Virus record (IMG/VR): IMGVR_UViG_3300036790_000178 | Span: 1 to 64,000 of that record | Length of the DNA: 64,000 nucleotides | Reading direction: 5' to 3' (one strand) | Source: a virus | In this document: in pieces, positions 809 through 38,623 of the stretch | Numbering within the stretch: position 1 is the stretch's first letter | Layout of the letters: each line of letters opens with the position of its first letter | The notes under the pieces: model-generated | What the model was told of the DNA's origin: nothing | What the model saw: only the letters and a program-made list of their open reading frames with translations | Database searches by the model: none | Position numbers and translations under genes: made by a program

Positions 809-855
809 TGGTGGAGCCAGGCGGGATCGAACCGCCGACCTCTTGCATGCCATGC
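809..855 (-). mobile_element. Prophage att core: duplicated 3' half of tRNA-Ala(GGC)
   Basis: Reverse complement GCATGGCATGCAAGAGGTCGGCGGTTCGATCCCGCCTGGCTCCACCA gives anticodon loop, T-arm and CCA; the 5' half (D-arm) is absent. Confidence 0.92.
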
Positions 856-3227: not shown

Positions 3228-3443
3228 ATGAACAGATTCTCAGTCGGTGATCGCGTCGTGCTGAACAACGCTCCCGAAGATGCGCCAGCCGCGACCGTCA
3301 CAGAAATAACCGAGTCTGGATTTAAGTACCGCCTAGACCGGCCGGTGCCTTTCTACCGCGGTACGACCCAAGAAGGCGAGGCTACCGATCTCTCGCAGTG
3401 GCGGCTGGAAAGCCATGTCAGCGCACAAGCACAAAAGGCTTGA
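3228..3443 (+). CDS. Small SH3/KOW-like hypothetical protein
   Basis: GGAG RBS; MNRFSVGDRVV start. Confidence 0.55.
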   Translation: MNRFSVGDRVVLNNAPEDAPAATVTEITESGFKYRLDRPVPFYRGTTQEGEATDLSQWRLESHVSAQAQKA

Positions 3444-4500
3444 TTCGCTCCGTGGCGTAGCTGCATTTTCGGTTGGGGTTGGGCACGCCTTCCTCTGCGT
3501 GCAGTTCGTGAGCGGATCGGCATGGCGGTACACGGTCTTGGGTGTATTCAACGCCAACTATGCCGTTGACATGTTCTTCGTGTTGAGCGGCTTCGTGCTC
3601 ACGAACATGATCAGCGGGTTTTCGGTAGCCGATTATTCCGCCTACCTGGGACGGCGGCTGATCCGACTCTACCCGATGCTGTGGGCAGCGCTGCTCCTTG
3701 GACTGGTCGCATTCGAGGCAGTGTCATCGCCGTGCAGCATCTCCCCGTGGGTCTGTCACTTCATCAAAGGGCCGTCGTCGGCTCTCGATTTTGTGCGAGA
3801 TGCGATACCCGGGGGAAACTACGGGCCGGACCCGGTGATGTGGACTATCCGGATCGAGGTCGCGGCGTCGATTGCGTACCCCATCATGCTTTTCCTCTGG
3901 AGGTACGCGAACGGGGTCGGCAAGATCGCACTTTCGGTCGCGGCGCTGGCGCTGCCCTTCGTCTCCCCGAACGGCTTCTCACACTACGCGTTCCTTTTCC
4001 TCGCCGGGATCGCCTTGAACGATATCCGGACGCTGTGGCGCCCGTGGGTGCTGCTATCAGCCGGCGTGGCGCTGATGCTCGTTTCAGGCTTTCTCGTCCG
4101 CGGTCACTCAGCCCCTGCCGACTTGGTGGCCGGCGCCAGTGCCGCAATGCTGATTGCGGTGGTCGTCTACGCCTGCCCGCAATGGATCGGGACAGCATTG
4201 GACAATCGGGGTGCGTTGAAGCTCGGCGAGCTTTCCTACTCGTACTACCTGCTGAATCCGATAGTCCTGTGGGTGATCGCGCGCGTGGCCGACAGACCGC
4301 TCTCGGCGTTCCTGGCTGGCGGTGGGGACGGACGGGCTGCGCTGGTCGCTACAGGGCTCATGCTGAGCGCTGCGGCCCTTGGCGTGGCTCTCGCGCAGGC
4401 AGCGAACCTCGCAGTCGAGAAACCGTCGATCAGATTGAGCCGGCGGGCGGAAAAGTGGATCTTGCAGGCTTTGGGACGCCGTGAGGCGCAGCCGGCGTAA
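3415..4500 (+). CDS. Acyltransferase-3 (OafA/Oac-like) membrane O-acyltransferase
   Basis: [43 protein letters not shown] and VEKP motifs; multi-TM. Confidence 0.92.
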
Positions 4501-4531
4501 AGGGCGAGAATACGCCCGAAGGGTGGGTCAG

Positions 4532-5044
4532 ATGGGTATTGCGCAATGGCACGACTTCGTCGAAGTCCCCGGACTTGATCGGGAGAGAAAGCGGCGCTTC
4601 GAATGGGCGCCTTCACGCTCTCTGCTGGCCGCCATACGGTCCTACCAGCGACACCGCGCCAGACGAAACCCCGTGAGCCTCATCGCCTCAAAGCTCGCGG
4701 TATTGCGTCACCGGTTCTGGTCCGTCGTGACAGGTGCCGACATCCCGCTCAATTCGCACATCGGCGCCGGGTTACTGCTCCCGCACCCGAACGGCATCGT
4801 GATTCACGATCTCGCCGTGATCGGTGCGAACTGCCTCATCTTCCAGCAGGTGACCATCGGAACGGCATCGGGTCCCGGATGTCCGGTGATCGGCGATCAC
4901 GTCGATATCGGAGCGGGAGCCAAGATCCTGGGCGGGGTGAAAATCGGCGCCTACGCCAAGATCGGCGCGAATGCGGTCGTCATATCGGATGTGCCGGCTT
5001 ACGCGACTGCGGTGGGAATTCCGGCGCGGATCGTCAGAAGTTGA
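4532..5044 (+). CDS. Hexapeptide-repeat O-acetyltransferase (CysE/WcaB-like)
   Basis: [33 protein letters not shown] and VGIPAR. Confidence 0.9.
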
Positions 5045-7259
5045 CGTAGTTGTAGACGCCGAGCGCCTTGCCTGGAGCCGTAATAGCAGGAGCTGTCGGC
5101 TGCCAGACGTTCTCATACTGACCTGAATCGCCAAACAGCGCCCACTGGCTGTTGTTCGTCGCAGTCTCGATATCATTGAAGAGGTTGGGCGTGACGCCAG
5201 AACTCGCGATGTCATCCAAGTAGCCGGGATTCGATGAGAGGACGTGACCCGGATCGTGGTATAGGTACTGCATCCGAGGATCGTGGTAGGAGTTCTCGAG
5301 CATCTGAATTTCAGGCGTCGAGAGCGCGAATCCCCAATTGGACGTGGCTGTAACGGTATCCTCGCCCATCTCATAGGCTTGAATCGTGACGGTCGGCCCC
5401 CACGCGAAGCCGTTCCCTCGGATGTCGGCAATGATGGTTTGCAGGTTCGCAATGCTCGTGACGGTGCCGCGGACATAGCCGATAGTCGGCAGGCTCGTGT
5501 AGGTATTGCCGCTCACTCCCACGTTGGAGTATGAGAGGCTGAAGGTCTCCCCTACCGGATCAGCAAGAGCCGCAATCGTGCCGATATCAGTCTGATACTG
5601 TGCCGTCGTCGCGGCGCTCGCCTTGGAAAGAAGCTGCATGTACGGGGCGACATGGCAGTCCGTCACGTGATGGGTATAGGCGCGGCTCGTCCAGTCCAGA
5701 GTGTTCATCGACGCCGCAAGATATGCCGGACCGTTGCCGGTCACTGTTTGCGTGCCCATCGAGATCCGGATCCGGCTCGACATCGCTGAGCCAAAGGCCG
5801 AGGCGAAGGCGTCACCTATCCCGGCCACCCAGATCCCGTACTGCTCCATGGTGGCGAAGAACTGGTTGTAATTCCCTCCCGGCAGACCTATCCACTGCTG
5901 GCCCACCATCTCGGCGAAGCCTGATTGTCCATACCCGAAGGTGCCGAAGTTCCACACCTCGTTCCCGAGCTCCGGCCATGCCTTCTTCGCTGACGAGAGT
6001 CCGGGAAAGACGGTCACCGGCCCCGCGAGCGATGCCCCGGTACCATCGCGCACCAGGGCCGCCAGGCTCGGCGTAAAGGTCGGGTCGCAGTAGTTGGCTC
6101 CGACCGGGATGTTGAGCCATGCATCCGTTCGCAACTGGTTGCAGAGTAAAATCTGGACCTCGTACGGCACCCCCGGCTTGCTGCAAGTCTTGCCGGCGAG
6201 TCCCCACGAGAAATTGGACATCTGCGGCCGGCTCGCCCAGGTCGGGCATTTCACCCAGGAAGCCATCCAGCCGATGATGCTGGTTGCTGAAATGGCCGAG
6301 GTGAGAGCGTCCCCTACGGCCCAATTCGCCGCGGTCGAGTTATACGTGAGAGACACCGACGGGACGATCTGGCCGTTCGCGAAGACGAAAGTATAGGTGC
6401 CGGTGGGTCTCGTCCAAGCGGTGGCGAGAGTCCCGCTGGTCGCTCCATTCGCGAGAGTGGCCGAGAAATTAAGCCCATACTCCTGGAAGTTCGTCGCCAT
6501 CCAGTCCATGAACCGCAGGCGCGAATAGGGGGTGAGCTTGGCCAGGAACTGGGGATGGAAAATCTGCCCTGCGTCGTAGAGCGCGGTATATGCCGTGGGC
6601 ACCAGCGACAGATTCCGGATATAGTTGACGCCATCGTTCGGGAGCGACGTGACGCCCCAGGAGATACCGGCAGAGGTGGCCGAGGTGACCTGGACGGTGA
6701 TCGAGGCGGTCTGGCTATTGGTCAACGTGCTCGTGACCGAATTGCCGCTTATCGTCACCCCGGTAGGCGGAGTCTGTGCCGGGATCGTGCAGTCGAAACC
6801 GACGAAGAACGTTCCGGGCCCTGAGAACTGAAGGCGAAACGTACCAGTCTGGTAAAGCTGCGAGCAGTTGGGCGGCAGCGTCCCGCCGTTCACCGCGTTA
6901 TTGATGAAGCAGAAAATCTGAGTGTTGGTCGTTCCCTGGCTGTCGACCATGGAGGTGACGTAGCCATCGGAATCGAGCAGCAGGAACGGGCTATAGGAGG
7001 TTCCCTGGATGAACCAGTAGTCCTCCCCGCTATTGGCCGATGCTGACTTGAAGAGGTTGAGGAAGGGCTGCTCCGGCGTCCAGTACTTGAGCCCAGATAG
7101 ATTGACGCCGATGTATTTGCGTGCGGGCGCGAGAATGCCGCCGCTCGATATCACCCCGCCTCCGCCCACGACCACCTGTTGAGCCAGGGAGGTGCCGAGA
7201 GTGCCCACCGCGGCAAGCGATGCCCCGGCGCTCAATAGGAATTTCCGGCGGTTCGGCAT
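5034..7259 (-). CDS. Tat-signal glycoside-hydrolase-like protein (clan GH-A-like)
   Basis: MPNRRKFLL signal with A-x-A-like cleavage; [27 protein letters not shown] and AYE motifs; TAATG coupling. Confidence 0.75.
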
Positions 7260-7600
7260 TAGTCCTTCACTCCTCTGAAGTGCCCGCTCCCGCCGTCCTG
7301 TGACCACGCTACCTTGCCGGTAGAGAAGTCGATCCCCCACCAGCTATCGCGCTTGCCGGCATACCGGGTAGAGGACCAGTACCAGTTGTTTCGGCAGAGC
7401 GAGAATTCAGAATGGATCGCAGGCTCTACGCGGCACCGGTCTACCAGCGTGAAAAGCTCCTCGATGGTCGGTAGCCTCAAGCCTGCCCGCCGGCAAAGGA
7501 GTGCGGCGATGGCGTGTTCGACCCAGTCGCTTTCGCCCAGAGCCCATATGAGATTCGTCTGCGTGTCGAGCAGCATGTCCCCGCGCGGCTCGAATCTCAC
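7259..7600 (-). CDS. DUF1566/Lcl C-terminal (C-type-lectin-like fold) protein
   Basis: DTQTNLIW, RLPTIEEL, YWSST and W.IDF..G motifs. Confidence 0.85.
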   Translation of the reverse strand: MRFEPRGDMLLDTQTNLIWALGESDWVEHAIAALLCRRAGLRLPTIEELFTLVDRCRVEPAIHSEFSLCRNNWYWSSTRYAGKRDSWWGIDFSTGKVAWSQDGGSGHFRGVKD

Positions 7601-9639
7601 GCGAAGGCCCCTACTTGAACCACCGACTGACCGGCGCGCGGCACCGGATTCAGCATGTAGTCATAGGCAAAAATGATCGGCAAACCGGAATTTGATCCAG
7701 CGCCTAGGCATGGCGAGGAACTGGTCAGCTCAAAGTCCGTCCAGTCCGTCACGATGAGTGGATCGCCGTAACTGTTTCCGGTCCCAGAAAGCGGGCTGGT
7801 CTGATGCCCTTCCGGGTCGTAGCACCGGTTGTAATTCTGTGTGAATGTACCGCCCGCCCCCTGATCCCAAAACGGCGTTGAAGAGTTGACGCGCCCGGCT
7901 CCCAAGACGAGCAGATTATTCTGCACCACCATCAGCGAGCCAGTCCCCGGAGTGGAATTGTTGTACATCATCCCGTAAACGCTATTGGTTGCGTAAAGGG
8001 TATTGTTGTAGTTGTAGCAGTATGCTTTCTCTTCCGTGTTCCAGCCGAAGTTTGCGACTCCAGCATTGGCCAAGAGATTGTACGCAGCGACGTTCTCTGC
8101 CCCTACCGCGCCACCCGTCGCGTCGCTCCAGTAGATGCCGTACTTGTTCGTAGTATCGGCAGGTTTTCCGTCAATGCACATGTGATGCACGACGATGGCA
8201 CCGTTGCTCGTGTGTCCCTGAAGATCGGGACCTGAGCCGCCGTATCCTGCCGCGTAGGACTGGAACGATGAACCACCGAAGCAGTTGTACACGAACCCGA
8301 AGGCTACCTCCCAGTCCCAGCAGTACCCGGCCTCAGCATCGGCGTAGAAGCCATGCGTCATCGACGCGCCGCCGATATCGTGGATGTACGGCAGGAAGAT
8401 CCGCACGCCCACACCATCCCCAGCCGCGCCTCCTGCCCGCATGTCCGCCGTGAATGGCCACGTGCTCTCGCAATTGAATGACCTGAAATAGTGAGCGCTG
8501 TTGTCGATGTTGAACAGCCACGAGGCAATCGTATTTGTGCCGGGCGCGACCCTGATGTTGGAGAACTGCATGTAGTGATTCATGCCGGCAGAACCGTCAT
8601 AAGGGTTAGTTATCCCAGCAGACGATCCGCTCTCCCCGGCATCCGCAGAGTCCTGGCCGAAGTAGAAAGCGCTACCCGTGTACTCGGGAAGCTCAGGCGC
8701 ATTTCCGCCAATTGGTCCCGGATATCCGCATATCTTGAGCGATCCGACGTTGACGCCAGCAACACCACCAGGAGCGATGATGGTCGGAGCGCATCCCGTT
8801 ACCCTCTGTCCCTGAACCCATGCGGTCGAATTTGGTCCCGTTGTGGCATGCGCCCATGTGCCGCTATTTCTGACGACGCACATGATGCCGGCCTGAGCGC
8901 CACTACTCTTGCCGCCAGATACCGTGAGGTTGCTGGCTAGAACCCCGAGCATGTTGTTGCCGCTCGCGCCGCTTTGCGCGTACTGCTTAGGCGATGCGAA
9001 CGTGCCGGGATTCGACTCACTTCCGTTGTTCTCGTCTATGTAGACGATGGGCGCCTGAGTCAGGACGATCTGAATCGGATTCCCGCGAAGGTCATTGGTG
9101 TTCGACGCCACGCCATTGACCACGACACTCAGCGCGAGAGGTGTCCCAATGGCGAGCGCTTGCACGGCGGCAGAGCCGATCTGGACGCCCAATATCCAGA
9201 TATCGGGAAACGGCCAGCCCACTGCTCGCGCGGCGACGGCGCAAGGCGCTTGGATGAGGTAGCGATAGTTGGCGATTTCTACGCCGTCGATAAACATGCG
9301 CGCGCCCGCTGGCGTACCCATGTTTGCGACGGATCCGGGATTGGTGAGCGCAACCGCCAGATACCCGCCTGCCCCACCCTCCCCTTCGTAATTGGCCGCC
9401 GTCATCCCGGTCGGAATGAAGCTGCTAGACGGCGCTACACCCGTCGGAACGTCGAGGAAGTCCTGGGCTATGACCAGCGGCGCGCCAGAGCCGCCGCCGG
9501 AAACCTGGATGACCTGGCCGCCCTCAACCAATACCACGCCGCCGGGAGCAACAATCTGACCCCTGGCAGACGGGGGCAGTAAAAGACCCGCAAAGGTCGC
9601 CCCAACGCCAGCAAGAGCTGTTCTGCGCGTGACGATCAT
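7597..9639 (-). CDS. Tat-signal right-handed beta-helix (polysaccharide lyase/depolymerase-like) protein
   Basis: MIVTRRTALAG...ARG signal; GSESNPGTFASP, IHD..HGFY, YNNTLY, NNLL and DFELTSSSPCLGAG. Confidence 0.75.
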   Translation of the reverse strand: MIVTRRTALAGVGATFAGLLLPPSARGQIVAPGGVVLVEGGQVIQVSGGGSGAPLVIAQDFLDVPTGVAPSSSFIPTGMTAANYEGEGGAGGYLAVALTNPGSVANMGTPAGARMFIDGVEIANYRYLIQAPCAVAARAVGWPFPDIWILGVQIGSAAVQALAIGTPLALSVVVNGVASNTNDLRGNPIQIVLTQAPIVYIDENNGSESNPGTFASPKQYAQSGASGNNMLGVLASNLTVSGGKSSGAQAGIMCVVRNSGTWAHATTGPNSTAWVQGQRVTGCAPTIIAPGGVAGVNVGSLKICGYPGPIGGNAPELPEYTGSAFYFGQDSADAGESGSSAGITNPYDGSAGMNHYMQFSNIRVAPGTNTIASWLFNIDNSAHYFRSFNCESTWPFTADMRAGGAAGDGVGVRIFLPYIHDIGGASMTHGFYADAEAGYCWDWEVAFGFVYNCFGGSSFQSYAAGYGGSGPDLQGHTSNGAIVVHHMCIDGKPADTTNKYGIYWSDATGGAVGAENVAAYNLLANAGVANFGWNTEEKAYCYNYNNTLYATNSVYGMMYNNSTPGTGSLMVVQNNLLVLGAGRVNSSTPFWDQGAGGTFTQNYNRCYDPEGHQTSPLSGTGNSYGDPLIVTDWTDFELTSSSPCLGAGSNSGLPIIFAYDYMLNPVPRAGQSVVQVGAFA

Positions 9640-9640
9640 G

Positions 9641-10375
9641 TCAATTCACCGGGTGACCGTTGCTGATGAGTGGATGGCCGTTTGAGAGAACTGACGACAG
9701 GGTCGGAGCGCTCGGGGCTTGAACCGACAGCGCCGCATGGGAGCCAATCAATCCGCCGCTCTCAGTCCAGCCGATCGTCACCGTTGAAGCCCCTGCCGCG
9801 TATTGTCCTGCGCAGTAGATGTTTCCGTTTGTCGAGCTATTCGCGAGCGTGCCAGACGGTGTGTAAACAAAGTCGTAAGGACGGCTCCCGACGAAGTCAA
9901 CTACTAGATCGCCCGTTGCGCTCGTGACAGTGAGAGACGGGTTGACTGCGTTTGTCACTTGGGATGCGAACGTTCCGGTCCGCATGACCTGCGTAGTCGA
10001 GCCGCCCGTCACGCTGATGGAGACACCATTGGCGTAGCTGGCCGACCCGAGCGTGACCAGAACGGTCTGCGCGCCGGTTGCAGGATTCGCCAGCTCGTAG
10101 ACGTACATCACATCGCCGCTGGCGTTCGCTGCACTCTGCCCGTCGAGAGTCATGGTCACGCCGCCGTACTTGACGCTGGTCGGCGCGGCTAGCCCGTAGA
10201 CTCCCACGATGATTCCGGTAGGAGTTCCTACCGGGGTGTTCGTCCAGCTTCCGGTGGTGGCGTTATTGACGATCCCTTCGCCAGAAGCACTGTAAGCGAC
10301 GCTCGCGAACGCCAGAGGACAGGCAAGGAGAGCGGCGCAGAGAAGCGCCGCTATCAGTCTCAGTGATCGGAACAT
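9641..10375 (-). CDS. Sec-signal beta-rich fibre-associated protein
   Basis: MFRSLRLIAALLCAALLACPLAFA signal; NPATGAQTV motif; C-terminal SNGHP repeat. Confidence 0.75.
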   Translation of the reverse strand: MFRSLRLIAALLCAALLACPLAFASVAYSASGEGIVNNATTGSWTNTPVGTPTGIIVGVYGLAAPTSVKYGGVTMTLDGQSAANASGDVMYVYELANPATGAQTVLVTLGSASYANGVSISVTGGSTTQVMRTGTFASQVTNAVNPSLTVTSATGDLVVDFVGSRPYDFVYTPSGTLANSSTNGNIYCAGQYAAGASTVTIGWTESGGLIGSHAALSVQAPSAPTLSSVLSNGHPLISNGHPVN

Positions 10376-10378
10376 GCT

Positions 10379-13300
10379 TTAGCTCCCCATGCACGAGAAG
10401 CCGACGACATCTCCCGACGTGATGGTGCCGCCGAGCGTCGCGCTACTCGCCCCCCACGTGGTTTCGCTCACCGTGTTCGCGGGAGTGGTCTTGTCCACGG
10501 CCTTGCAGATCCATGTGCTATTGGGAGCCGTGGGCAGATTCACGACGATGCTGGAAGCGCCCGTCGTCCCGGAGCATACAAAGCTGCCAACCGTGGTTCC
10601 GCCGACCAGGGTTGTCGTCGTGGCGCATGCCCCGCTACCGCTGCTCAGGGTGAACGTCGTGCCCTCATCGAGCAGGTACGTGACCGTCGTGGCCGCCGTG
10701 AGCTGACCGCTGGAGTTGGTCGAGACCACAGCCGCACTCGTCGGCACCGCCCCGCCGTTCACCTTGACCACCGTAGTAGCCACGGTCCCGGATGTGGTGG
10801 TGACGTCGCCGGTGAGCGCCGGCATCTGAGCCGCCGCCAGAGTCCCGCTATTGACCTCCGTGGCGGCGATCGACTTATTCGTCAGGGTCTGGGTTGCGGC
10901 GAGCTCCACCACCGTGTCGGTCGCGGCCGGGAATGTGGCCGTGAAGTTCGACGTGCTGGCATTCGCGGTGGCAAGAGCGGTCGTCCCGGTCGAGGAGCCC
11001 TTGATGAGAATGTCGCTAGCGGGGAAGGTCTGCGCGGCCGACCAGGTATTCGGCACCGCAAGCGCCGCGAGAGACGCCGATGCCGGTATCGTGGTCCCGT
11101 TGACGCTGGTCACATTCGGGAGCGACGTCAGGCTCGACGCGACGGCATTGGCGGTGATCGTGCCCGTTCCCGTCGTCCCAAGGGTGGCTCCCGTCCCGAC
11201 CAGCATGGCGGCCGTCGTATTGGTCGCAGAGGTCAGCGCCGAGAACGCTGTAGCGCCAGTGCTGCTCGCCGTGATCGTGACACCGCTGCCAGAGTTCGCG
11301 AGCGTAATGTTCGTGCCGGCGATGAGATTGAGCGCGGTCTGGCTGGCATTGTTCGTGCCGTTGGTCTGAAGCGTGATCCCACCACCGCAATCAGCCCCGA
11401 AGCCCGATACCACTCCCGAGGTGCTGACGTGCAAGCACTGGGTCGAGCCGGTGATCCCGGAGAGAGTCAGGCCCGAGAGCGTCTGAGTCGCGCTGAAGGT
11501 CTGCGCGAGATTCAGTTCTGCCACCGTGCCGGTGTTCGCCGGGAACGTCCCGGTGAAATTGCTGGCTCCGGAATCCGAAGTGGTCAGCGTCACGAAGCCG
11601 GTCGAGGAGCCGAGGAGATCAAGATTCCCAGTCGTCGTGAGGCTCGCCCCGCTCCCAACCACCATCGCCGCCGATGTGTTCGTGGCCCCTGAGATCGCGC
11701 TGAACGCAAGAGTCCCAGTCGTGGTGCAGCCGATCAATTGTCCCGAGCTGTTGCTCGCGAGACAAGTCTGGCTGGCGGGCACGGTGGCGCCGTTCACCTC
11801 ATTCGAGTTGAGCGTGCCGGTGCCCGTGGGTCCCAAGCTCGCCCCGCTCCCGACAAGCATTGCGGCTGCGGTATTGGTGCCACCGGTGAGAGCGCTAAAT
11901 GCGGAACTGCCCCCGCCGCCGCATCCCGTGCAGCTCGCGACCGTGAGGTTTCCCGACGCATCGAGGGATGCGACGGAGGCGCCCCCGTTGACGTGGAAGT
12001 CAAGGAAATATCCCGCGAAGCCGCTGTTGCCGTTGAACCCCATGAAGGTCCCAGCCGTGTTCCACGTCGTGACATTGGTCCCCGCCGAGAACATGAAGAG
12101 GGGAACCGTGGTCGTGCCGGTGCCACCTGAGAAAGGCGTGCCGAGGAACGCCGTTGCCGTCGAGTTCGACGCGCCGTTCTTGGTATTGTTGAAGCCCTGC
12201 GAGAAGACCTGGCCGGCGCTGAACGTCTGCCCCAGATTGAGCTCGGCGATGGTGCCCGTGTTCGCCGGCAGGCTGGCCGTCACGGAACCAAGCGCACCGG
12301 TGACCGGCGCAATGGTCACCGTGCCCGAAGTCGCATTGCCGAGCGCAACCGAACCCGCGGTACCCGAGGCGCCGAGCGACAGCGCGCCCGCGGTGATCGA
12401 TGCATTCGTGGTGCCGGAGACCGCGGTGCCCGTGGAGCCGTAGAAGGCGAGCTGGCCCAGCGTGCCGGAGTTGACCGTGCCGGAGCCGGTAGTCGGTGTC
12501 TGCCAGGTCGCGGCCGTGGTGCTCGTGGCCGTGAGAACCTGGCCAGTCGTCGGGGCCGTGGCGGAGCTGACTGCAACCGTCGTCGTGGCGGATTTCAGCC
12601 CGTTCGCAACTGTGGCAGTGCCAGCGGTTAGGCTGGCGGCAGTGCCGGTGAGGTTCGTCGCAACGCCTGAGGCGGGCGTGCCGAGCGCGCCGCCATTCAC
12701 GGCGAATGAACCCGCAGTGCCTACGTTGACGGCGAGCGCCGTCGCGACACTCGTTCCAAGCCCACTGAGTCCTGAAAGCGGAGCGCTGGTGGCCGCGATG
12801 GTTCCAGAACCTGTGGCACCGAGGCTCGAGCCCGTGCCGACAAGCATCGCCGCAGTCGTGTTCGTTCCGCTCGTGAGAGCAGAAAATGCGCTGCTGCCGC
12901 CACCACTACAGGCGCCCCATGTTCCCAAGCCGGCCGTCGTCGTCGAGAGTTCGCACTGGCCGGCAGTCGTGGTCGTCGGGGAGGTCAGGATCGGCTGACC
13001 ATTCGCCTGCGTGTTCGCAGCCGAGCCGGCGACGATGTTCGTGACGCTCCCTGAATTCGTGCTGCCGTAGGTGGCGCTGACGGCCGCAGCCGAGGTCGTT
13101 CCTGTTACATGCTCGAACGTCGCGGCACTGGCACTTCCGCCGATCTGCCGATATGAATTGCCGTTGCGATCATCGCGACAGTCAAAGGGAAGCGAGAAAG
13201 ACGACCAGCCCGTGCAATGCGGCGGCGCGCCATCACTGGCGGCGGCCGTGCTCGTCGAGAAGAGGTTGTCCTCGTAGACGCCGCTCGTGAAACTGCTGGG

Positions 13301-14941
13301 GCCATGGAACTGCCAAACATACGAATTGGCGTTGGCCGTGGTCGCGGTGAAGCTCGCTCCAGCGCAGTCATCCGAGTCGGTGCAACTGAAATCGAAGTCG
13401 TTGTCGTTTTGGATGTAGGTCTGGACGGCCGACAGAAATTCGATTTGGCACGCCACATAGCCAGGGAAGCCCGCGACTCCGCAAGTGCCGGGATCGCTCG
13501 CGTCGCGCTGTACCTGTAGCCAATCCGTGGGGTTCGCTAAGGAATCATCCAGCATCGCTCCATGCAATGTGGTGACGCCGCTCGTGGTGGTGCTATAGAG
13601 CTTCCAGTTCTTCTGATTGGCTGCTGCGGAAGGGTCCGACAGCGAGAACGGCAAATCGACACCGATCACGGGATTGCCGGAGATCGCATTCGCCGTGACG
13701 GTGCCCGTGCCCGTGGGGCCGAGACTTGCCCCGGTACCGACAAGCATCGCGGCGGTGGTGTTTGTCGCTCCCGTGAGCGCGCTAAACGCGGTCGCGCCCG
13801 TCGAGCTCGCCGTGATCGTCTGATTCGGCCATGTCCCTGTGATCGTGACGTTCGTGCCGGCGACGAGGCCTGCGCCGGTTACCGCAGCTCCCAGGTTCGT
13901 GGCGGAGGGCGTTCCCAGGAAGGTGGCCACTCCGGTGCCCAGTCCGGACAAGCCACCCACCGGAAGGCCGGTGGCGTTGGTGAGTGTGCCGGAGGCGGGA
14001 GTGCCGAGCGCGATGCCGGACGAAAGAGCGTTGGCGGTAATCGTGCCGCTACCAGTCGGGCCGAGACTTGCGCCAGTGCCCACGAGCATGGCCGCTGTGG
14101 TGTTCGTGCTGCTCGTCAACGCGCTGAAGGCGGAACTGCCACCCGCGCCGCAGCCGGCTCCGGAGTCGACGAGATTCCCGGTCGTGGTGCTCCACTGCGC
14201 GCAGTGACCTGAGACGAGTGAGCCGCTGAAAGTCGTGAGAGTCGACGGCAGGTCGGACAGGGTGAGCGAGAGCGGCGCAAGGGTTCCGGCCGTACCAGTT
14301 CCGATGACCTGGTGGGCGGTGAGTCCCGTGGCGCCGGCGAGCGTGAGGGTGCCTGAGCTCGTGACCGGGGAGCCAGAGACGGTGAGCCAGGAGGGAGCCG
14401 AGAGGCCGACACTCGTGACCGAGCCGCCGCCGCTCAGGGAATGGCAGGCACCATCAGAGCCCAAGAGGATCGTATTGCCGCTGCAGCCGGAGAAGAGCGC
14501 GCCGATATCGCTCGCGGCCGCGGTGGTCAATCCCGAGCCGGTACCCTTGATGACGCCCGAGAGAGTCGTCGAAACGGTGAGCGCGCCGCTACTCGTGACA
14601 GGCGAGCCCGCAACCGTGAAGCCCGCCGGCATGACGAGGCCGACACTCGTGACGGTGCCAGCGCTCGAGCACGCCTGCCAGACGAGCGCGGTCCCGTTGT
14701 TCGCGAGGCAGTAGCCGTTGACGAGCGGTGAAGGCAGAAGCGAGAGGACCGCGTCCGAATCCACGAAGTACGTGACGATCTGCGCCGGCAGGATGTCGAC
14801 CGTGATGCCGCTCTGATCGGAGAGCATCCGCTCGCTGCCGGTCAGTGGAGATGCGGTCGGGTAGCCGCCCACTTCTTGGGTCGCGGCTCCCGCGGTCGAG
14901 AAGACGGCGACGAGCGCGAGGATCGCGAGGAGTCTTTTCAT
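10379..14941 (-). CDS. 1520-aa Sec-signal tail-fibre-like repeat protein
   Basis: MKRLLAILALVAVFSTAGA signal; GSVTSVGL..P, LGTPASGTLTNATGLP and TQTLTNK fibre motifs; S/T/G/A rich. Confidence 0.85.
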   Translation of the reverse strand: MKRLLAILALVAVFSTAGAATQEVGGYPTASPLTGSERMLSDQSGITVDILPAQIVTYFVDSDAVLSLLPSPLVNGYCLANNGTALVWQACSSAGTVTSVGLVMPAGFTVAGSPVTSSGALTVSTTLSGVIKGTGSGLTTAAASDIGALFSGCSGNTILLGSDGACHSLSGGGSVTSVGLSAPSWLTVSGSPVTSSGTLTLAGATGLTAHQVIGTGTAGTLAPLSLTLSDLPSTLTTFSGSLVSGHCAQWSTTTGNLVDSGAGCGAGGSSAFSALTSSTNTTAAMLVGTGASLGPTGSGTITANALSSGIALGTPASGTLTNATGLPVGGLSGLGTGVATFLGTPSATNLGAAVTGAGLVAGTNVTITGTWPNQTITASSTGATAFSALTGATNTTAAMLVGTGASLGPTGTGTVTANAISGNPVIGVDLPFSLSDPSAAANQKNWKLYSTTTSGVTTLHGAMLDDSLANPTDWLQVQRDASDPGTCGVAGFPGYVACQIEFLSAVQTYIQNDNDFDFSCTDSDDCAGASFTATTANANSYVWQFHGPSSFTSGVYEDNLFSTSTAAASDGAPPHCTGWSSFSLPFDCRDDRNGNSYRQIGGSASAATFEHVTGTTSAAAVSATYGSTNSGSVTNIVAGSAANTQANGQPILTSPTTTTAGQCELSTTTAGLGTWGACSGGGSSAFSALTSGTNTTAAMLVGTGSSLGATGSGTIAATSAPLSGLSGLGTSVATALAVNVGTAGSFAVNGGALGTPASGVATNLTGTAASLTAGTATVANGLKSATTTVAVSSATAPTTGQVLTATSTTAATWQTPTTGSGTVNSGTLGQLAFYGSTGTAVSGTTNASITAGALSLGASGTAGSVALGNATSGTVTIAPVTGALGSVTASLPANTGTIAELNLGQTFSAGQVFSQGFNNTKNGASNSTATAFLGTPFSGGTGTTTVPLFMFSAGTNVTTWNTAGTFMGFNGNSGFAGYFLDFHVNGGASVASLDASGNLTVASCTGCGGGGSSAFSALTGGTNTAAAMLVGSGASLGPTGTGTLNSNEVNGATVPASQTCLASNSSGQLIGCTTTGTLAFSAISGATNTSAAMVVGSGASLTTTGNLDLLGSSTGFVTLTTSDSGASNFTGTFPANTGTVAELNLAQTFSATQTLSGLTLSGITGSTQCLHVSTSGVVSGFGADCGGGITLQTNGTNNASQTALNLIAGTNITLANSGSGVTITASSTGATAFSALTSATNTTAAMLVGTGATLGTTGTGTITANAVASSLTSLPNVTSVNGTTIPASASLAALAVPNTWSAAQTFPASDILIKGSSTGTTALATANASTSNFTATFPAATDTVVELAATQTLTNKSIAATEVNSGTLAAAQMPALTGDVTTTSGTVATTVVKVNGGAVPTSAAVVSTNSSGQLTAATTVTYLLDEGTTFTLSSGSGACATTTTLVGGTTVGSFVCSGTTGASSIVVNLPTAPNSTWICKAVDKTTPANTVSETTWGASSATLGGTITSGDVVGFSCMGS
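11150..14140 (-). repeat. Six dispersed ~35-aa repeats (AFSALTxxTNTTAAMLVGTGASLGPTGxG) within the fibre gene
   Basis: Six copies visible in the translation; boundaries approximate. Confidence 0.85.
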
Positions 14942-15018
14942 TTCAGGCTACCTGCATGAAGGCAAAGGGAATCCCTGCGGCTTGGCGCCGCATGTCTGAT
15001 TCGCGCGAGGGAATGGGT

Positions 15019-15053
15019 TTGCTAACCGCTCGGCATTAAGCCGCAGTTAGCAA
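15019..15053. promoter_or_regulatory. Stem-loop upstream of the exported-fibre cassette
   Basis: TTGCTAACC...AGTTAGCAA inverted repeat with inner GGC/GCC pairing. Confidence 0.5.
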
Positions 15054-15082
15054 TTGACAATCTGAAGGACGTTAAAAGGTCG

Positions 15083-15691
15083 CTATGACGCGGACGCTCT
15101 GTATTCGCGGGCGCGGCTCGCATTGCTGTATCTGCAAAGAGCGCATCGACATCCTTGGTCATAACGTCTGCGCGTGCCGCATGGCGCTGGGCCCTTAGTT
15201 CCTTTCCTTGCTCTGTTCATCGCCGCGCTCACTGTCGGACGCTGATCTGGCGCCAGCAGCGCTGACTTGGCATCCATTCCCTTTTTCATGCGCCTAAATA
15301 CGGTAGACGTGTTCAGCTGCAAAACTCGGATCCATTCGGTGATCGGCCGAGAGACGCCATCAATCTCGACACGGCGTGATGTTTGTTTATTATTGCTCTG
15401 CTCTTTTTTCGTTGCCCAGCGGCAGTTCTCCGGCTCGTAGTCACCGTCGTTGTCCTTTCGGTCCAGCGACATTCCCGGCGGCGGCTGTCCCATGTCCGCG
15501 AGGAAGTTAGCAAAGTCCCCCCATCGAGCGCAGACGCGGATGCCGCGGCCGCCGTATTGGGCGTACCGGTCGATCTTTGGATCAGTACAACGGCGCCACA
15601 TATTGTTCCAAACTAGATAGGCTCGAGTTCCAGCGCCGCCGTGTCGCCAGTTACCGTTTAGCTCTCCCATCCCAGAGGTGCTGCTGCGCAT
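15083..15691 (-). CDS. HNH homing endonuclease-like protein
   Basis: YGGRGIRVCARW, SLDRKDNDGDYEPENCRWAT. Confidence 0.9.
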   Translation of the reverse strand: MRSSTSGMGELNGNWRHGGAGTRAYLVWNNMWRRCTDPKIDRYAQYGGRGIRVCARWGDFANFLADMGQPPPGMSLDRKDNDGDYEPENCRWATKKEQSNNKQTSRRVEIDGVSRPITEWIRVLQLNTSTVFRRMKKGMDAKSALLAPDQRPTVSAAMNRARKGTKGPAPCGTRRRYDQGCRCALCRYSNASRAREYRASAS

Positions 15692-15712
15692 GACGGCAAA
15701 TTATCGATCAAA

Positions 15713-16249: not shown

Positions 16250-16252
16250 GGC

Positions 16253-16576
16253 CTAGTTCCCGAAAACGACCCAGCGAAGCGTGGCGAGGAAGCCGCGCCT
16301 CTTCTTCGGGGCGCGCAACGGGATCGGCTCGCTCGGCGCCGGCTCCGCTACAATCTGCGTCGGAGCCGGTTGATCCGTGCCCCCCGTGGCTAAACCGGCA
16401 GCCGCATGCGGGGGGACTTCGCTCACCTTGAGAGACTCGAGCTGCTCGGAGTTGCTGCGCAGGATCTCGCGCGCTTCGGGTGTCAGCTCCTCCCCGACGA
16501 CGAGGCTCACGCCCTCTTCCGCCGGCCTCGCGACCTTGGGCCGCCGCGGCTTGCTCGACTTGCGTTTGGCGGTCAT
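16253..16576 (-). CDS. Hypothetical protein
   Basis: ATGA coupling, GGAGG RBS. Confidence 0.55.
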   Translation of the reverse strand: MTAKRKSSKPRRPKVARPAEEGVSLVVGEELTPEAREILRSNSEQLESLKVSEVPPHAAAGLATGGTDQPAPTQIVAEPAPSEPIPLRAPKKRRGFLATLRWVVFGN

Positions 16577-17355
16577 GCGGCCTCCTGCACTTCGATCTGC
16601 TGTGCCGCGGCGAGGAGGCCCTGCAGGTCGAAGCCGTTCGGCGCCGTGCCGCCGGCGCGCACGAAGTCTGGCCACGCCTCGCAGTGAGCCTCCTGGAGGA
16701 AGTCGCTATTGCCGATGAGGGACCAGGAGACCGGCTGCAGCTTTCCCCAGGTCACGACGTACGCGAAGTCGGCGTCGTACTTGACGATCGGGACGTCGTG
16801 GCCGCCCTCGACGTTGCCAGCGACGCTCGTCCAGGGCTGGCCGGCGCCGAAGGTCTGCATCATCTGGTCCGTAACGACGATGCCGAGCCGGCATGACCCG
16901 AAGAGCTGCACCGCCCACTTGAGATGCGCGAGGTTGGTCGGGTCTACGGGGCCGCTGGCTGCTGACTTCTGGCCGCACAGTCCCGTAGTAGTGAGGTACT
17001 GGCACATGCCGGTCTCATCGCATCCCTGGTCCGTCGATGAGTTGCCGGGCACGTAGCCGCCCACCGCTTCATAGAGCGCGAGGATGTCCTGCTGCGTCGG
17101 GATGAGGATCGCGCCGGCGTTGGCCGTGCGCAGCATGAGGCCGTGCCCACTGTCCTCGCAGACGCAGTCCCCGAGCTGATCGTTCAGCCAGCAGATCCAG
17201 CCCGCGGCGCTCTGCTTCATCACTGCCGACACATAGTCGTCGCTCGCGGCGGGCGGGGCGCCGAGCGTGGCGAGCGCCTGATGCATGGCGATGCCGAGGC
17301 GCATCGTGCGCCGGGTATGGACCGCCGGCCGGCGGCCGGTGCGCAGCGCCATCAT
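16573..17355 (-). CDS. Papain-like cysteine peptidase
   Basis: NDQLGDC...GGH..IVKYD...VTWG. Confidence 0.7.
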   Translation of the reverse strand: MMALRTGRRPAVHTRRTMRLGIAMHQALATLGAPPAASDDYVSAVMKQSAAGWICWLNDQLGDCVCEDSGHGLMLRTANAGAILIPTQQDILALYEAVGGYVPGNSSTDQGCDETGMCQYLTTTGLCGQKSAASGPVDPTNLAHLKWAVQLFGSCRLGIVVTDQMMQTFGAGQPWTSVAGNVEGGHDVPIVKYDADFAYVVTWGKLQPVSWSLIGNSDFLQEAHCEAWPDFVRAGGTAPNGFDLQGLLAAAQQIEVQEAA

Positions 17356-17576
17356 TTGCGCTTCCCGTGATCATGCCCATCACCCTGGACGCACTCCCCG
17401 CCGCCACCAGTGGGGTTGCCCTGCGCGTCGTATGTGGTGACGGACTTCCAGTGTCCGCCGCCTGACTCGCACTGCTCCTGCGGTGTGGGCGCCGGGATGG
17501 CGTCGAGGATCGCGCCGACGGTCGCGCACGCGCTCAGCAACGCTGCGGCCGCCACACAGGCAAGTCTTGCTTTCAT
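17352..17576 (-). CDS. Small lipoprotein (possible spanin-like or lysis accessory)
   Basis: Lipobox LSAC after MKARLACVAAAAL; two further Cys. Confidence 0.7.
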   Translation of the reverse strand: MKARLACVAAAALLSACATVGAILDAIPAPTPQEQCESGGGHWKSVTTYDAQGNPTGGGGECVQGDGHDHGKRK

Positions 17577-17593
17577 GGACGCTCCAAATGCAG

Positions 17594-17620
17594 CGCGCCC
17601 CGCCAAAGGCGCGGGGCGCG
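17594..17620. terminator. GC-rich hairpin
   Basis: CGCGCCCCGC-7 nt-GCGGGGCGCG; no clear U tract. Confidence 0.35.
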
Positions 17621-17645
17621 GCATATCCGGGACGGTGGGGACGGG

Positions 17646-18038
17646 TTACTTCTGGGCGGCAGCCTTCTTCGCCGCGCCGCTCGTCAGGTAGGCGCCCGCC
17701 GAGGACGCCATTCCGCTTCCGACGTCAGCGAGTGCCTGCTGAAGCGAGCCGCCGAGCACGGGCGTGTTCTCCACGACATTGAGTTCGACCTGAAGATACG
17801 GCTGGCCGGTCGACCAGAGATCCTCGGCAACCTTCTGCAGGCCCGGATCCTTGATGCCGGCGATCGCCGAGGCGACCTGCGCGTTCGCCCCGGTGATATC
17901 ACCCTTGCCGGCGGCGCTGAAGAAGGCCGCGACCTGCGAGGCCGTGGTGGCGCGGGCCTGCTTGTCCGCATCGGACGAACCCTGGCTGATGACGGCCGCG
18001 GTGACAGCTTCGGCGGCGAGGTAGGGAATGGAGCTCAT
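17646..18038 (-). CDS. Hypothetical helical protein in the lysis region
   Basis: Coupled ORF with phage-like codon usage. Confidence 0.65.
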   Translation of the reverse strand: MSSIPYLAAEAVTAAVISQGSSDADKQARATTASQVAAFFSAAGKGDITGANAQVASAIAGIKDPGLQKVAEDLWSTGQPYLQVELNVVENTPVLGGSLQQALADVGSGMASSAGAYLTSGAAKKAAAQK

Positions 18039-18265
18039 GGTTTCACCTGTTGCGCCGGGGTGGCCGGCTGGGTAGGGTTTACGGGGCTGGGGATGTGGAA
18101 CACGGAAGTGACGACGTGCATCAGGATGGTCCCCAAGCCGCCCAACACCATCTCGATGATGGCGCGGGCATCCTGGGAGAGCGTCACGGGATGCAGGATG
18201 AGGAGGTAGATGAGGCCGCCCATCACCGCCGTCAGGAAAAAGCAGTACGCGACACGGGCGTTCAT
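18035..18265 (-). CDS. Two-TM holin-like protein
   Basis: 76 aa, two hydrophobic helices, near the endolysin. Confidence 0.55.
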   Translation of the reverse strand: MNARVAYCFFLTAVMGGLIYLLILHPVTLSQDARAIIEMVLGGLGTILMHVVTSVFHIPSPVNPTQPATPAQQVKP

Positions 18266-18639
18266 AGGTTCACCTTGAGAGTGAGGTTCGTGGGCGCGCC
18301 CGGAACTTCCGAGAAGGTCCCGCAGGCTTCCGGCGAATGAGGCGATTCGAATCCGTTGACGACAGACGTCACGAAGCCGCAGACGGTCTCGCCCGCGGTG
18401 TATCCAGAGGTGATTGCGCTCGTGAAGCGGATCCCGGTCTGTACTGGCGCCGCGGCCTCACTTCCCGGGCCGGCAGTGCCGACGTACAGGTTGTAGGTGA
18501 TCGTCGCGGTGCTTGGGATAGCTGTACCGTCGGTGAACTGTGTCGGCGCGCTGTAGGCCCAATTGACCGTTCCGCTGGTCTGTGCGGAAGCGACGCCCAC
18601 GACGAGCATCGCGGCGAGCGCGATGAGATAGCGAATCAT
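18262..18639 (-). CDS. Sec-signal FN3/Ig-like protein
   Basis: MIRYLIALAAMLVVGVASA signal; YNLYVG, CGFVT..NG.ES..S.EAC and PGAPTNL. Confidence 0.75.
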   Translation of the reverse strand: MIRYLIALAAMLVVGVASAQTSGTVNWAYSAPTQFTDGTAIPSTATITYNLYVGTAGPGSEAAAPVQTGIRFTSAITSGYTAGETVCGFVTSVVNGFESPHSPEACGTFSEVPGAPTNLTLKVNL

Positions 18640-18719
18640 GGGGAAGGTCCTCTTCGGGAAATTATGGCGACCGGTTGGCATGATCCCGGCTCCGCTGCTG
18701 GCGCGGCGAGCGAGCTGCA

Positions 18720-19076
18720 TCAGAATGGCTCCAGCTGCACGGTCTTGCCCGTGAGTTGGTGAGTGCAGTCGGAAAGGAACTGAATCTGGCCGCCGGTCAC
18801 GAATGAATGGCAGCGAGTGTCGGCCGCAGGAAACGTAGGCGCCGGCTTCGGGCAACCTTCCGCGTGCCACGCATCGAACTGGCGCCTACCGTCTTCGGTG
18901 AAATCGCGCCCGGTGACAAGCACGCTCGGCGTGAAGCTCGGTCGGTCATAGTCGCCATTGAAGCCCCACGGCTCGGGAGCGGGCGCCACGCGCACGGCAT
19001 GCATCTGCCTGCAGCCCGGGCACCAGAAACCCAGCTTGCCGCCCTCGATGGTTCGGAGGACGCCGCGCGCGCTCAC
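18720..19076 (-). CDS. DUF6527-like Cys/His protein
   Basis: FWCPGC...H, FNGD.DRPSFTPSV, CHSFVT.G.IQFL.DCTH. Confidence 0.8.
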   Translation of the reverse strand: MSARGVLRTIEGGKLGFWCPGCRQMHAVRVAPAPEPWGFNGDYDRPSFTPSVLVTGRDFTEDGRRQFDAWHAEGCPKPAPTFPAADTRCHSFVTGGQIQFLSDCTHQLTGKTVQLEPF

Positions 19077-19561
19077 GACAGCGCCGCGAGCGACGCGGCC
19101 ATCTGCCGCCGCTCCCAGCCGGTGCCGTCACGCGACCAGGTTGCGGACTGATGGAGCCGATCCATGCAGGCTCCGAAGTACCACTCGAGGAGCGCTGCCG
19201 GCGTGGGGAGCGTCGCGGCATGAATGGTCTGCGGCCCGATGCCGCCATCGACGTGCACGCCGAGCGCGCGCTGTAGCGCCATCACCGCCTGCACTGGCCC
19301 GTCGAGCACGGAGAACGCGAGCAATGGCATGGCGAGATAGGACGGCAGATCCGACGCCCCCTTCGGCCAGTACTGTTCCGCGAGCATCTGAGCGGCTGCG
19401 GCCTGCGTGAGCGCCTGTAGCTTCCCGGCAAGCTCGGGGTGATAGCGCACAGCCAGACCCCATGCGGTCTCCCCGCCCGGATCCTTGGGATCGAAGTGGT
19501 ACGGCCCCTCACGGCCCGTCACCCAAAGCGAGGCCTCCTGGAGAGCGTCTGCTGAGATCAT
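19073..19561 (-). CDS. Endolysin, glycoside hydrolase family 108
   Basis: EG.Y..DPKDPGGET.WG; LQRALGV.VDG.IGP.T; GW.RR. Confidence 0.85.
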   Translation of the reverse strand: MISADALQEASLWVTGREGPYHFDPKDPGGETAWGLAVRYHPELAGKLQALTQAAAAQMLAEQYWPKGASDLPSYLAMPLLAFSVLDGPVQAVMALQRALGVHVDGGIGPQTIHAATLPTPAALLEWYFGACMDRLHQSATWSRDGTGWERRQMAASLAALS

Positions 19562-19986
19562 TGGGGCGAGCGCTCCTGCCCGCAGTTGATCGCCTGCGGA
19601 TACGGATGGCCCGCCGTGTTCTCGTAGCGCTCGAGCAGCTGCGAGAGCGACGCCTCGTAGAGACCGCGGGACTCGGAGTTCTGCGTCTCGCTACAGCGGC
19701 CGGCGTCCTGCAGGATCTGGGAGCTCAAGTCCTCGAGGTAGTGGCGGCCCTCGTTCTTCTCATCAGCTCGCATCTGCGCCGTGATCGGCGCCACGGCCGC
19801 TATGATCGAGGGGCCCATCTGGGCCTTGAGGGCCTGCACATCGCTTTCCTTCGCGAAGTTGTGCGTGCTGTAGTAGATCCAGCCCGTGAGTCCCATGAGA
19901 GCCGTGCAGGAGACGATGCGCACGCGGTATCGCTCCGGAAGGAGCTTGTCCAGCTGCGCGAAAATCACGCCAAGCATGTCGCTCAT
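19558..19986 (-). CDS. Single-TM protein upstream of the endolysin (holin/antiholin candidate)
   Basis: N-terminal TM, C-terminal Cys pair, position. Confidence 0.5.
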   Translation of the reverse strand: MSDMLGVIFAQLDKLLPERYRVRIVSCTALMGLTGWIYYSTHNFAKESDVQALKAQMGPSIIAAVAPITAQMRADEKNEGRHYLEDLSSQILQDAGRCSETQNSESRGLYEASLSQLLERYENTAGHPYPQAINCGQERSPQ

Positions 19987-37072: not shown

Positions 37073-37090
37073 GTTGCTGTAGCTCCGAAA

Positions 37091-37723: not shown

Positions 37724-37753
37724 GTGATTCTGGCTCCTGGGGTGGGGGTGAGA

Positions 37754-38536: not shown

Positions 38537-38623
38537 AGGTTGTTACCTTTGGGTGATACGCGGCAATGCCGCACCGATGGCGCACGCCGCGCGGTGTGCG
38601 TCAGAATTGGGAGGAGAGAGAAT

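Follow-up and report, generated by a model that had tools for sequence, protein, structure and literature searches.

The stretch of DNA analyzed here, hereafter referred to as the window, comprises bases 1–64,000 of the 72,342-bp IMG/VR virus record IMGVR_UViG_3300036790_000178, and the subject of this work is a cassette of five open reading frames (ORFs), designated A to E, which are located on the minus strand at 14941–5034. The leading gene, A (10379..14941), codes for a fibre-like, putatively exported protein of 1520 amino acids (aa) and is followed by B (9641..10375), coding for a small putatively exported protein of 244 aa, C (7597..9639), coding for a predicted beta-helix protein of 680 aa with a signal resembling those of the twin-arginine translocation (Tat) pathway, D (7259..7600), coding for a signal-less Lcl_C/DUF1566 protein of 113 aa, and E (5034..7259), coding for a 741-aa protein which possesses a Tat motif and resembles glycoside hydrolases (GHs). 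The five genes had been described as tightly coupled in an earlier note on this DNA, which is confirmed by the ORF coordinates and by the junctions: A and B are separated by a 3-nt spacer and B and C by a 1-nt spacer, while C and D overlap in GTGA and D and E in TAATG, so that D is translationally coupled to C as well as to E. The open frame of E extends upstream to a GTG at 7340, but a ribosome-binding site (GAGGAG/AAGGA) is only present before the ATG at 7259 and there is none at the GTG.

Export signals were judged by motif and with two heuristics of our own, a strict one and a loose one. The loose heuristic also tries alternative starts and over-calls (TerL is flagged, for example), so the counts obtained with it are upper bounds. 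A signal of the general secretory (Sec) type, cleaved by signal peptidase I, was defined by a positive n-region, an uncharged hydrophobic h-region of about 10–15 residues and small residues at −3 and −1, and these features were found in both A and B with the strict heuristic. Protein A begins with the Sec-type signal MKRLLAILALVAVFSTAGA (residues 1–19), followed after the predicted cleavage site by ATQEV, and protein B with MFRSLRLIAALLCAALLACPLAFA, likewise of the Sec type and followed by SVAYS, although a loose lipobox (LLAC) also fits here. Protein C begins with MIVTRRTALAGVGATFAGLLLPPSARG, followed by QIVAP, and its signal contains TRRTAL and a predicted cleavage site between ARG and Q. 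Tat signals are characterized by the motif S/T-R-R-x-F-L-K, a mildly hydrophobic h-region and an AxA-type cleavage site, and protein E possesses NRRKFL, a mild h-region and the predicted site SLA before QQ. No signal was found in D. When the strict heuristic was applied to the 79 ORFs of the full 72-kb record that are 80 aa or longer, seven were flagged. These are A, B and C together with a holin-like protein, a host membrane protein and two ORFs with weak calls, while protein E escaped owing to the weak hydrophobicity of Tat h-regions. The match of protein E to the Pfam family TAT-signal (PF10399) is below the cut-off (E value 0.016, 15 bits versus 24), and no match for its signal was found in NCBIfam at an E value of 0.1 or lower. 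The claim that four of the five genes start with Sec or Tat signals is thereby upheld by motif and heuristic, with A and B being of the Sec type and C and E putatively of the Tat type.

The signals are also found in relatives. Homologues of A were collected by a word-index search in which 8,000 candidates were scored, giving 232 proteins at an E value of 0.001 or lower, and among the best 120 of these 232 a signal was found in 102 by the loose rule. The signal-negative ones mostly start with V or L, as truncated gene calls do, and a few have phage-like N-termini. The twin arginines are kept in two relatives of C (P0150 and P0183) as well as in a protein resembling E from another phage genome, described below as G002. 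The public gene call for C (P0143) begins 34 codons downstream and excludes the signal, yet the 685-aa homologue P0150, which begins with MPTRREFISKVG, aligns to C from residue 3–4, which argues that the signal region of C is translated. Sec or lipoprotein signals were recognized by eye in five of the nine homologues of protein E that were fetched. As for ordinary tail fibres, which the earlier note had held to be made without signals, none of the 15 IMG/VR relatives of the N-terminal domain of the phage's own tail fibre carries one. The signals conserved in about a hundred relatives, the cysteine pairs of A described below and the signals on four partner proteins in two unrelated phages strongly suggest that the cassette proteins are exported, so far as this can be read from the genes.

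Protein A is rich in Thr, Gly, Ala and Ser, which make up 59% of its residues, and contains six copies of the repeat AFSALTxxTNTxAAMxVGxGxSL. It possesses 24 cysteines, forming 12 neighbouring pairs whose partners are 3–38 residues apart, compared to one cysteine in the 361 aa of the signal-less fibre of the same phage and none in its tape-measure-like protein. Such short-range pairing is expected of a protein folding in an oxidising compartment. The protein ends in a conserved cysteine-containing globular domain of 110 aa. No family was assigned to A in Pfam, PHROGs or NCBIfam, the search of PDB sequences gave no match at an E value of 1 or lower, and a TBLASTN search of 50,697 GenBank phage records returned no match. 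The “tail-fibre-type motifs” previously reported in A are therefore a partial description: one repeat stretch is indeed common to a signal-less viral fibre (locus L005), but there is no match to a tail-fibre family of PHROGs or Pfam. The reported lack of an autotransporter barrel and of a transmembrane anchor was corroborated, as no Pfam autotransporter domain and no hydrophobic segment besides the signal were detected. One homologue is named “fibronectin-binding autotransporter adhesin” in its source, and this name is not borne out for A, which contains no autotransporter domain. The homologues exchange their N-terminal domains while the rest is kept; the similarity between the mature N-terminus of A and that of a fibre-like protein of G002 is marginal (E value 0.009, pairwise). 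The S74 chaperone-protease domain is present in six of the best 120 of the 232 homologues and absent from A itself. Long plus-strand ORFs with a high GC content at third codon positions (GC3) were observed opposite A at 10389–14714 (up to 305 aa) and opposite the head genes at 36056–39847 (1263 aa); they scored above A in a simple GC3 filter, but in all likelihood they merely shadow the true coding strand.

Protein B has no family in Pfam, PHROGs or NCBIfam, and its nearest clusters in the ESM Atlas are 92–100% viral (scores 0.95–0.96, structural TM 0.72–0.76). Its C-terminal tail LSNGHPLISNGHP is common to two cassette proteins of G002 (the LSNGHP-type tail). For C, 65 relatives were found among 1.84 billion cluster representatives, and a profile built from 30 of them matches PDB entry 9rx2_A, “Parallel beta-helix repeat protein”, with an E value of 3.5e-10 at profile positions 385–583. 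The beta-helix assigned to C in the earlier note thus finds support at the profile level, and C is a predicted parallel beta-helix protein, whereas no Pfam beta-helix family and nothing useful in PHROGs or NCBIfam was matched. The N-terminal domain of C is taken by us to be IPT/TIG-like on account of its motif, with no match to that family in Pfam. The family as a whole is mixed: signals of the Tat, Sec or lipoprotein kind occur in part of it, and many members are signal-less with phage-like or Fn3-type N-termini.

Protein D is a stand-alone Lcl_C/DUF1566 (C-type-lectin-like) domain, matching PF07603 with an E value of 1e-15 and 58.5 bits against a cut-off of 34.9 and covering positions 2–116 of the 117 of the profile, so that it belongs to this family; its C-terminal part also matches phrog_4245. 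No relative of D was found in any of the fetched loci. D is signal-less and encoded between two putative Tat substrates; it may act as a chaperone or be a Tat hitchhiker. Protein E has 21 detected relatives, and in the 12 that were aligned N433-E434 and E630 are invariant; the GH-like motifs of the protein are GNEVWN and YEMGE. An Asn-Glu acid/base residue with a second catalytic Glu is the pattern of clan GH-A glycoside hydrolases, whose fold is a (beta/alpha)8 barrel. Its structural neighbours in the Atlas are “putative cellulose-binding protein” clusters (TM 0.60–0.64), some of them half viral. The description of protein E as GH-like holds at the level of these invariant residues, and it is a putative glycoside hydrolase by motif; no Pfam, PDB-sequence or PDB-profile match was obtained that would bear on this, and PHROGs and NCBIfam gave nothing useful for E. 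Searches of PDB sequences with A, C and E were empty or gave nothing significant, and IMG/VR yielded no close relatives when queried with E and C as single proteins. Directly after the predicted cleavage site, C and E (residues ~27–50) and two proteins of G002, encoded at 18218–20131(−) and 14152–16233(−), have in common a stretch of about 20 aa rich in Gly and Val, the four being otherwise unrelated putative exported enzymes. The Gly/Val stretches and the LSNGHP-type tails may be docking peptides.

The distribution of the cassette was traced with a profile of the 110-aa C-terminal domain of A, which was found in 21 IMG/VR loci, in one locus among 185,579 GTDB species genomes and in 42 JGI metagenome loci, several of the latter being the same contigs as the IMG/VR matches. 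The sole GTDB locus belongs to an Acidobacteriota metagenome-assembled genome (MAG). Signals were found in 13 of the 21 IMG/VR proteins by the strict heuristic, applied to crude gene calls, and in 20 by the loose one. In the metagenome set the N-terminus is on the contig for 27 of the 42 proteins, and 19 of these 27 are positive by the strict heuristic. A few signal-less fibre-type proteins have the same C-terminal domain (loci L015, L018 and L041). The co-oriented genes neighbouring the A-type gene are often signal-bearing as well (L003, L007–L011, L016, L022, L026 and L027).

The most informative of these records is G002, a 64,034-bp viral genome rated 100% complete by CheckV. Its last 126 nt are identical to nt 5–130, so it is circular despite being labelled “linear”, and its portal, major head protein and 1327-aa DNA-ejection-type protein indicate a podovirus-like phage; the TerL of the window has no match in it. 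The cassette of G002 is located between the ejection proteins and the holin/endolysin block and includes an A-like fibre of 1306 aa with up to 74% identity in segments and a Sec signal, a C-like protein with 31% identity over 617 aa and a Sec signal, a B-like protein of 291 aa with a Sec signal and the same LSNGHP C-terminal tail as in B, a signal-bearing glycine-rich protein also ending in the LSNGHP tail, and a remote relative of E of 693 aa beginning with the Tat-type MVTRRQML (hhalign probability 98.4%, E value 8.9e-15, 362 columns). With regard to the conservation of signals and synteny, a check proposed in the earlier note, a similar signal-bearing cassette is thus present in an unrelated complete phage genome.

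The position of the cassette differs from genome to genome. In G003, a 100% complete 52-kb genome whose portal is 53% identical to that of the window phage, an insertion of about 8 kb consisting mostly of signal-bearing genes, including an A-type one, is located between TerL and the portal gene (6490–14010, locus L009), where cargo genes are unusual. The A-type gene of G158, a 49.3-kb genome with terminal repeats that is 100% complete, comes after genes for baseplate and fibre-like proteins and shares 16 nt with the fibre-like gene before it. It follows from the placements in G002, G003 and G158 that the module is conserved in content, mobile in position and common to phages with different heads and tails. 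Locus L008 encodes at 5793–6776 a homologue of the N-terminal domain of the window phage's own fibre (45% identity over 96 aa) with a 26-aa signal-like extension; a TTG start is located exactly where the homology begins and could bypass the extension, so exported and cytoplasmic isoforms are both conceivable. In G159 (33 kb, terminal repeats) an 851-aa signal-bearing protein matches a PHROG annotated as “virion structural protein” (E value 6e-8); the gene calls of this record look unreliable, nine out of ten of its proteins having no PHROG match, and only this single match was used. For ten proteins of the cassettes in G002, L003 and L009, the sole Pfam match was a sub-threshold one to RGI_lyase. 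Among ten viral records containing the A-type domain, a tyrosine integrase (PF00589) was detected in one, which is not among the six that are at least 98% complete, and a serine recombinase (PF00239) was detected in one of five records of at least 98% completeness. Neither recombinase was present in four of the five such records searched for both families, a count that does not cover other modes of lysogeny, and this favours a role in the lytic cycle. G002 and the window prophage both have integrases.

The genes surrounding the cassette are those of a tailed phage. On the minus strand TerL (44121–42544) is followed by the genes coding for the portal, a head-protease-like protein, a tape-measure/transglycosylase protein, the baseplate hub and wedge, a 715-aa protein of the baseplate region, a tail fibre of the phage itself that is signal-less and contains a Gp10_C domain (19983..21068), a GH108 endolysin (19073..19561), three small genes (16573..18870), a 178-aa gene, an HNH endonuclease (15083..15691; phrog_3377, E value 2e-51) and the cassette, which is consistent with the previous statement that the latter is co-oriented with the tail and lysis genes and distal to them. 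The HNH gene, located between the lysis block and the cassette, is about 27 kb away from TerL; in cos phages such genes usually adjoin the terminase. The three small post-endolysin genes (202, 130 and 260 aa) are common to G002, where they also follow the lysis genes (10427–12431), and the 260-aa gene is present 9 kb from the A-type gene in the GTDB locus (L006, 19062–19814); this gene belongs to phrog_19005.

The sole sizeable non-coding stretch adjoining the cassette is the 141-bp gap upstream of A (14942..15082, minus strand), which contains a perfect 8-bp inverted repeat (TTGCTAAC and GTTAGCAA, separated by 19 nt) and a GC hairpin. The inverted repeat may be an operator or a terminator, and no promoter or terminator was called by a consensus scan either in this gap or at the borders of the cassette. 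At the other end, genes coding for an Acyl_transf_3 acyltransferase and a hexapeptide acetyltransferase (3415..5044, plus strand) converge on E, the end of the ORF on this side overlapping the end of E by 11 bp, and to the left of them there are RadC and an HTH gene. Acyl_transf_3 and acetyltransferase genes are typical of serotype conversion, and those found here look like surface-polysaccharide acylation cargo.

It was also considered whether the cassette might be host DNA beside a prophage, or an assembly chimera, its signals marking ordinary secreted bacterial proteins. There are grounds for asking, as relatives of C and E come from bacterial MAGs named Steroidobacteraceae (those of A are named Acidobacteriota or Acidiferrum), many relatives of C are ordinary secreted proteins or lipoproteins, and host flanks are possible in IMG/VR records. 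The boundaries of the prophage speak otherwise. A 45-bp direct repeat is shared by positions 811–855 and 72044–72088 of the full record, the right copy being the 3′ end of an intact tRNA-Ala(GGC) gene (72044–72117) with a tyrosine integrase at 70845–71990 beside it and the left one (811..855) a copy of the same tRNA 3′ end acting as attL. Taken together, the repeat, the tRNA gene and the integrase indicate that the prophage spans approximately 811–72088 and that the cassette is located about 4 kb inside its left end. An independent Logan contig (16,303 nt), whose run is probably the source, shows zero differences across 6826–20000, so that the cassette and the lysis genes were not joined by a chimeric assembly, and a run from a second soil study contributes seven identical short pieces across 3649–19392 in Logan. 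With a similar cassette also present in the circular 64-kb genome G002, the host-DNA or chimera explanation was rejected as highly improbable, and the phage-borne nature of the cassette, as earlier proposed, is supported. The record is labelled in IMG/VR as “linear” and 81% complete, though both prophage ends seem to be present. A 248-aa host protein encoded in the flank has matches in two of the 151 sampled genomes of the phylum of the Acidobacteriota MAG, with the best identity being 42%.

The reading we tentatively favour, while giving it somewhat less than an even chance, is that the cassette belongs to the accessory genes of tailed soil phages as a horizontally mobile module which codes for late-made, periplasm-matured fibre, lectin-like and glycan-cutting proteins acting outside the virion on the host envelope or exopolysaccharide. 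The five genes, coupled in translation, would form the end of the late transcription direction of the tail and lysis genes; Sec would carry A and B across the inner membrane, and Tat would carry E and probably C. Protein A would then fold in the oxidising periplasm with about 12 disulfides, and A, B and D as fibre and lectin-like proteins together with C and E as enzymes would bind and cut a host surface glycan, whether capsule, exopolysaccharide or lipopolysaccharide, from the periplasm or the cell surface as long as the cell is intact, and as free proteins once it has lysed. The likely benefit would be the removal or masking of the receptor glycan, so that the progeny would escape entrapment on debris and matrix and would not be lost to cells already infected. 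We infer the actual export, the timing of expression, the enzymatic activity with its substrate and the benefit to the phage. Several observations favour such an accessory module: the window phage is already equipped with a baseplate and an ordinary fibre that lacks a signal, the position varies (after the lysis and HNH genes here, before the lysis genes in G002, between TerL and the portal in G003), and the cassette is found mostly on viral contigs, is shared between tail types and occurs in genomes in which no integrase was detected. The enzymes and lectin-like parts also make sense as a glycan-targeting set. It is for these reasons ranked slightly above both proposals of the earlier note, a virion appendage and an adhesin or glycanase on the surface of the lysogen.

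A number of points weigh against this interpretation. Late timing is deduced from gene orientation alone, no RNA run holding the cassette stretch was found, and the 141-bp gap with its inverted repeat could house a promoter of A's own. This reading gives no account of how a fibre of 1500 aa would get through the outer membrane ahead of lysis, and the putative hydrolase character of protein E is derived from motifs alone. In G002, G158 and L008 the exported-type fibre gene occupies the tail-fibre slot, which fits a virion protein at least as well, while the flanking acyltransferases and the position at the prophage end fit lysogenic conversion.

The last of these points leads to the possible, albeit rather unlikely, alternative that the cassette is a lysogenic-conversion moron, transcribed in the lysogen from its own promoter and providing the host with an adhesive surface fibre and exported glycanases, which could serve for attachment, polysaccharide foraging or the remodelling of receptor glycans so as to exclude other phages. 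Its location at the prophage end near attL, adjoining the opposite-strand acyltransferase and acetyltransferase genes, is what would be expected, its position varies among related phages as that of morons does, and the gap with a palindrome upstream of A offers room for a promoter, though none was found there by the consensus scan. Precedents have been published: about 5% of prophage carbohydrate-active enzymes (CAZymes), 3,261 of 64,678, bear signal peptides (PMC13507307), and the MAT (mosaic adhesive trimer) proteins of Bdellovibrio are signal-bearing, phage-fibre-like and displayed on the cell surface (PMC10769870), with the S74 domain of part of that family recurring in the six homologues of A among the best 120 mentioned above. 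On the other hand, the absence of both tyrosine and serine recombinases from four of the five records at least 98% complete speaks against a role in lysogeny, as do the co-orientation with the late genes and, in G158, the overlap with the preceding fibre-like gene. The C-terminal domain of A is also found in a single locus among the 185,579 species genomes compared to 21 in IMG/VR, a weak argument because MAGs often lose prophages.

Still less probable is the explanation that the proteins are virion appendages matured outside the cytoplasm, the fibre and the enzymes being exported via Sec and Tat, folded with disulfides in the periplasm and docked on finished particles at lysis. That would amount to a two-compartment assembly of Caudoviricetes, with the Gly/Val peptides after the cleavage sites and the tails of B as docking elements and D possibly riding with a Tat substrate, which is likewise doubtful. 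The tail-fibre slot is taken by the A-type gene after the ejection proteins and before the holin and endolysin in G002, with a 16-nt overlap in G158, and in L008, where the fibre N-domain homologue carries its 26-aa signal-like extension, although this could be bypassed from the TTG start. The homologues of A swap N-terminal domains like phage fibres do. The similarity of the mature N-terminus of A to that of a G002 fibre-like protein is marginal (E value 0.009, pairwise). The Gly/Val stretch shared by C, E and their G002 counterparts and the B-like tails are possible docking peptides, but the module occurs both in the podovirus-like G002 and in the baseplate-bearing window phage, and with such different tails a common docking site is unlikely. 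The signal-bearing 851-aa protein of G159 with its virion structural PHROG (E value 6e-8) and the signal-less fibre-like proteins of L015, L018 and L041 ending in the same C-terminal domain as A also agree with a virion role, whereas the window phage has its own signal-less fibre and baseplate, none of the 15 relatives of the canonical fibre N-domain has a signal, and the cassette is located here beyond the lysis and HNH genes and in G003 between TerL and the portal. No tailed-phage precedent was found in our searches of the literature on this point.

It seems that certain phages export proteins resembling fibres and sugar-cutting enzymes from their host's cytoplasm. If these act on the host surface, they would represent a new phage tool to escape or remodel exopolysaccharide-rich soil hosts, and secreted proteins that bind or cut glycans, are probably very stable and have no Pfam family could be obtained from them. 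If they are instead carried on virions, the one-compartment assembly rule for tailed phages would need revision. Either way, predictors of receptor-binding proteins and surveys of “auxiliary metabolic genes” in which phage proteins are sorted by signal peptide would misfile this class.

Tailed-phage fibres and depolymerases are taken as cytoplasmic products, and to our knowledge the described tailspike and fibre depolymerases fold in the cytoplasm without signals. In phages of the CBA120, G7C and K64-1 type they form branched multi-enzyme receptor-binding complexes. The cassette resembles such depolymerases in coding for a predicted beta-helix enzyme beside a fibre-like protein, in mosaic N-termini and in short shared terminal peptides, and differs in its export signals; the known depolymerases are parts of the virion. 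The T5 lipoprotein Llp and the O-antigen acetylases are exported phage proteins that block or modify receptors; they act on the surface of the infected cell to protect the progeny or exclude rivals, as is proposed here, and an Acyl_transf_3 gene adjoins the cassette, but they are small single proteins compared to a 1500-aa fibre with glycanases. Morons of the lambda Lom and Bor type are signal-bearing prophage cargo. Like these and the prophage CAZymes, the cassette proteins would be exported, and their genes are located in the late or tail-fibre part of the phage or at one end of the prophage, whereas the known cases are single genes regarded as cargo of benefit to the host and the cassette is a coupled five-gene fibre block recurring in unrelated phages, including complete genomes without a detected integrase. 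A search of the literature on signal-bearing fibres, Acidobacteria phages and Tat or depolymerases yielded no signal-bearing fibre and glycanase cassette in tailed phages.

The nearest likeness to A outside phages is the MAT superfamily of Bdellovibrio, whose members have a conserved beta-rich N-terminal domain of about 130 aa, a trimeric beta-helical fibre and an optional S74 domain (PMC10769870). Those are chromosomal genes of a predator and not phage cargo, and they are not described as forming cassettes with Tat-exported enzymes. A itself lacks S74 and is likened to them by its signal and fibre description and not by the MAT N-terminal domain. What is shared is the order of a signal followed by a long tail-fibre-like protein with variable tips, which is displayed outside the cytoplasm in the MAT case and would be exported in the case of A, and the occurrence of S74 in a subset of MAT proteins (PMC10769870) as in six of the best 120 of the 232 homologues of A. 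Exported phage accessory proteins and secreted adhesins resembling phage fibres are already known, and what appears to be new is such a coupled cassette of fibre and putative glycanase genes.

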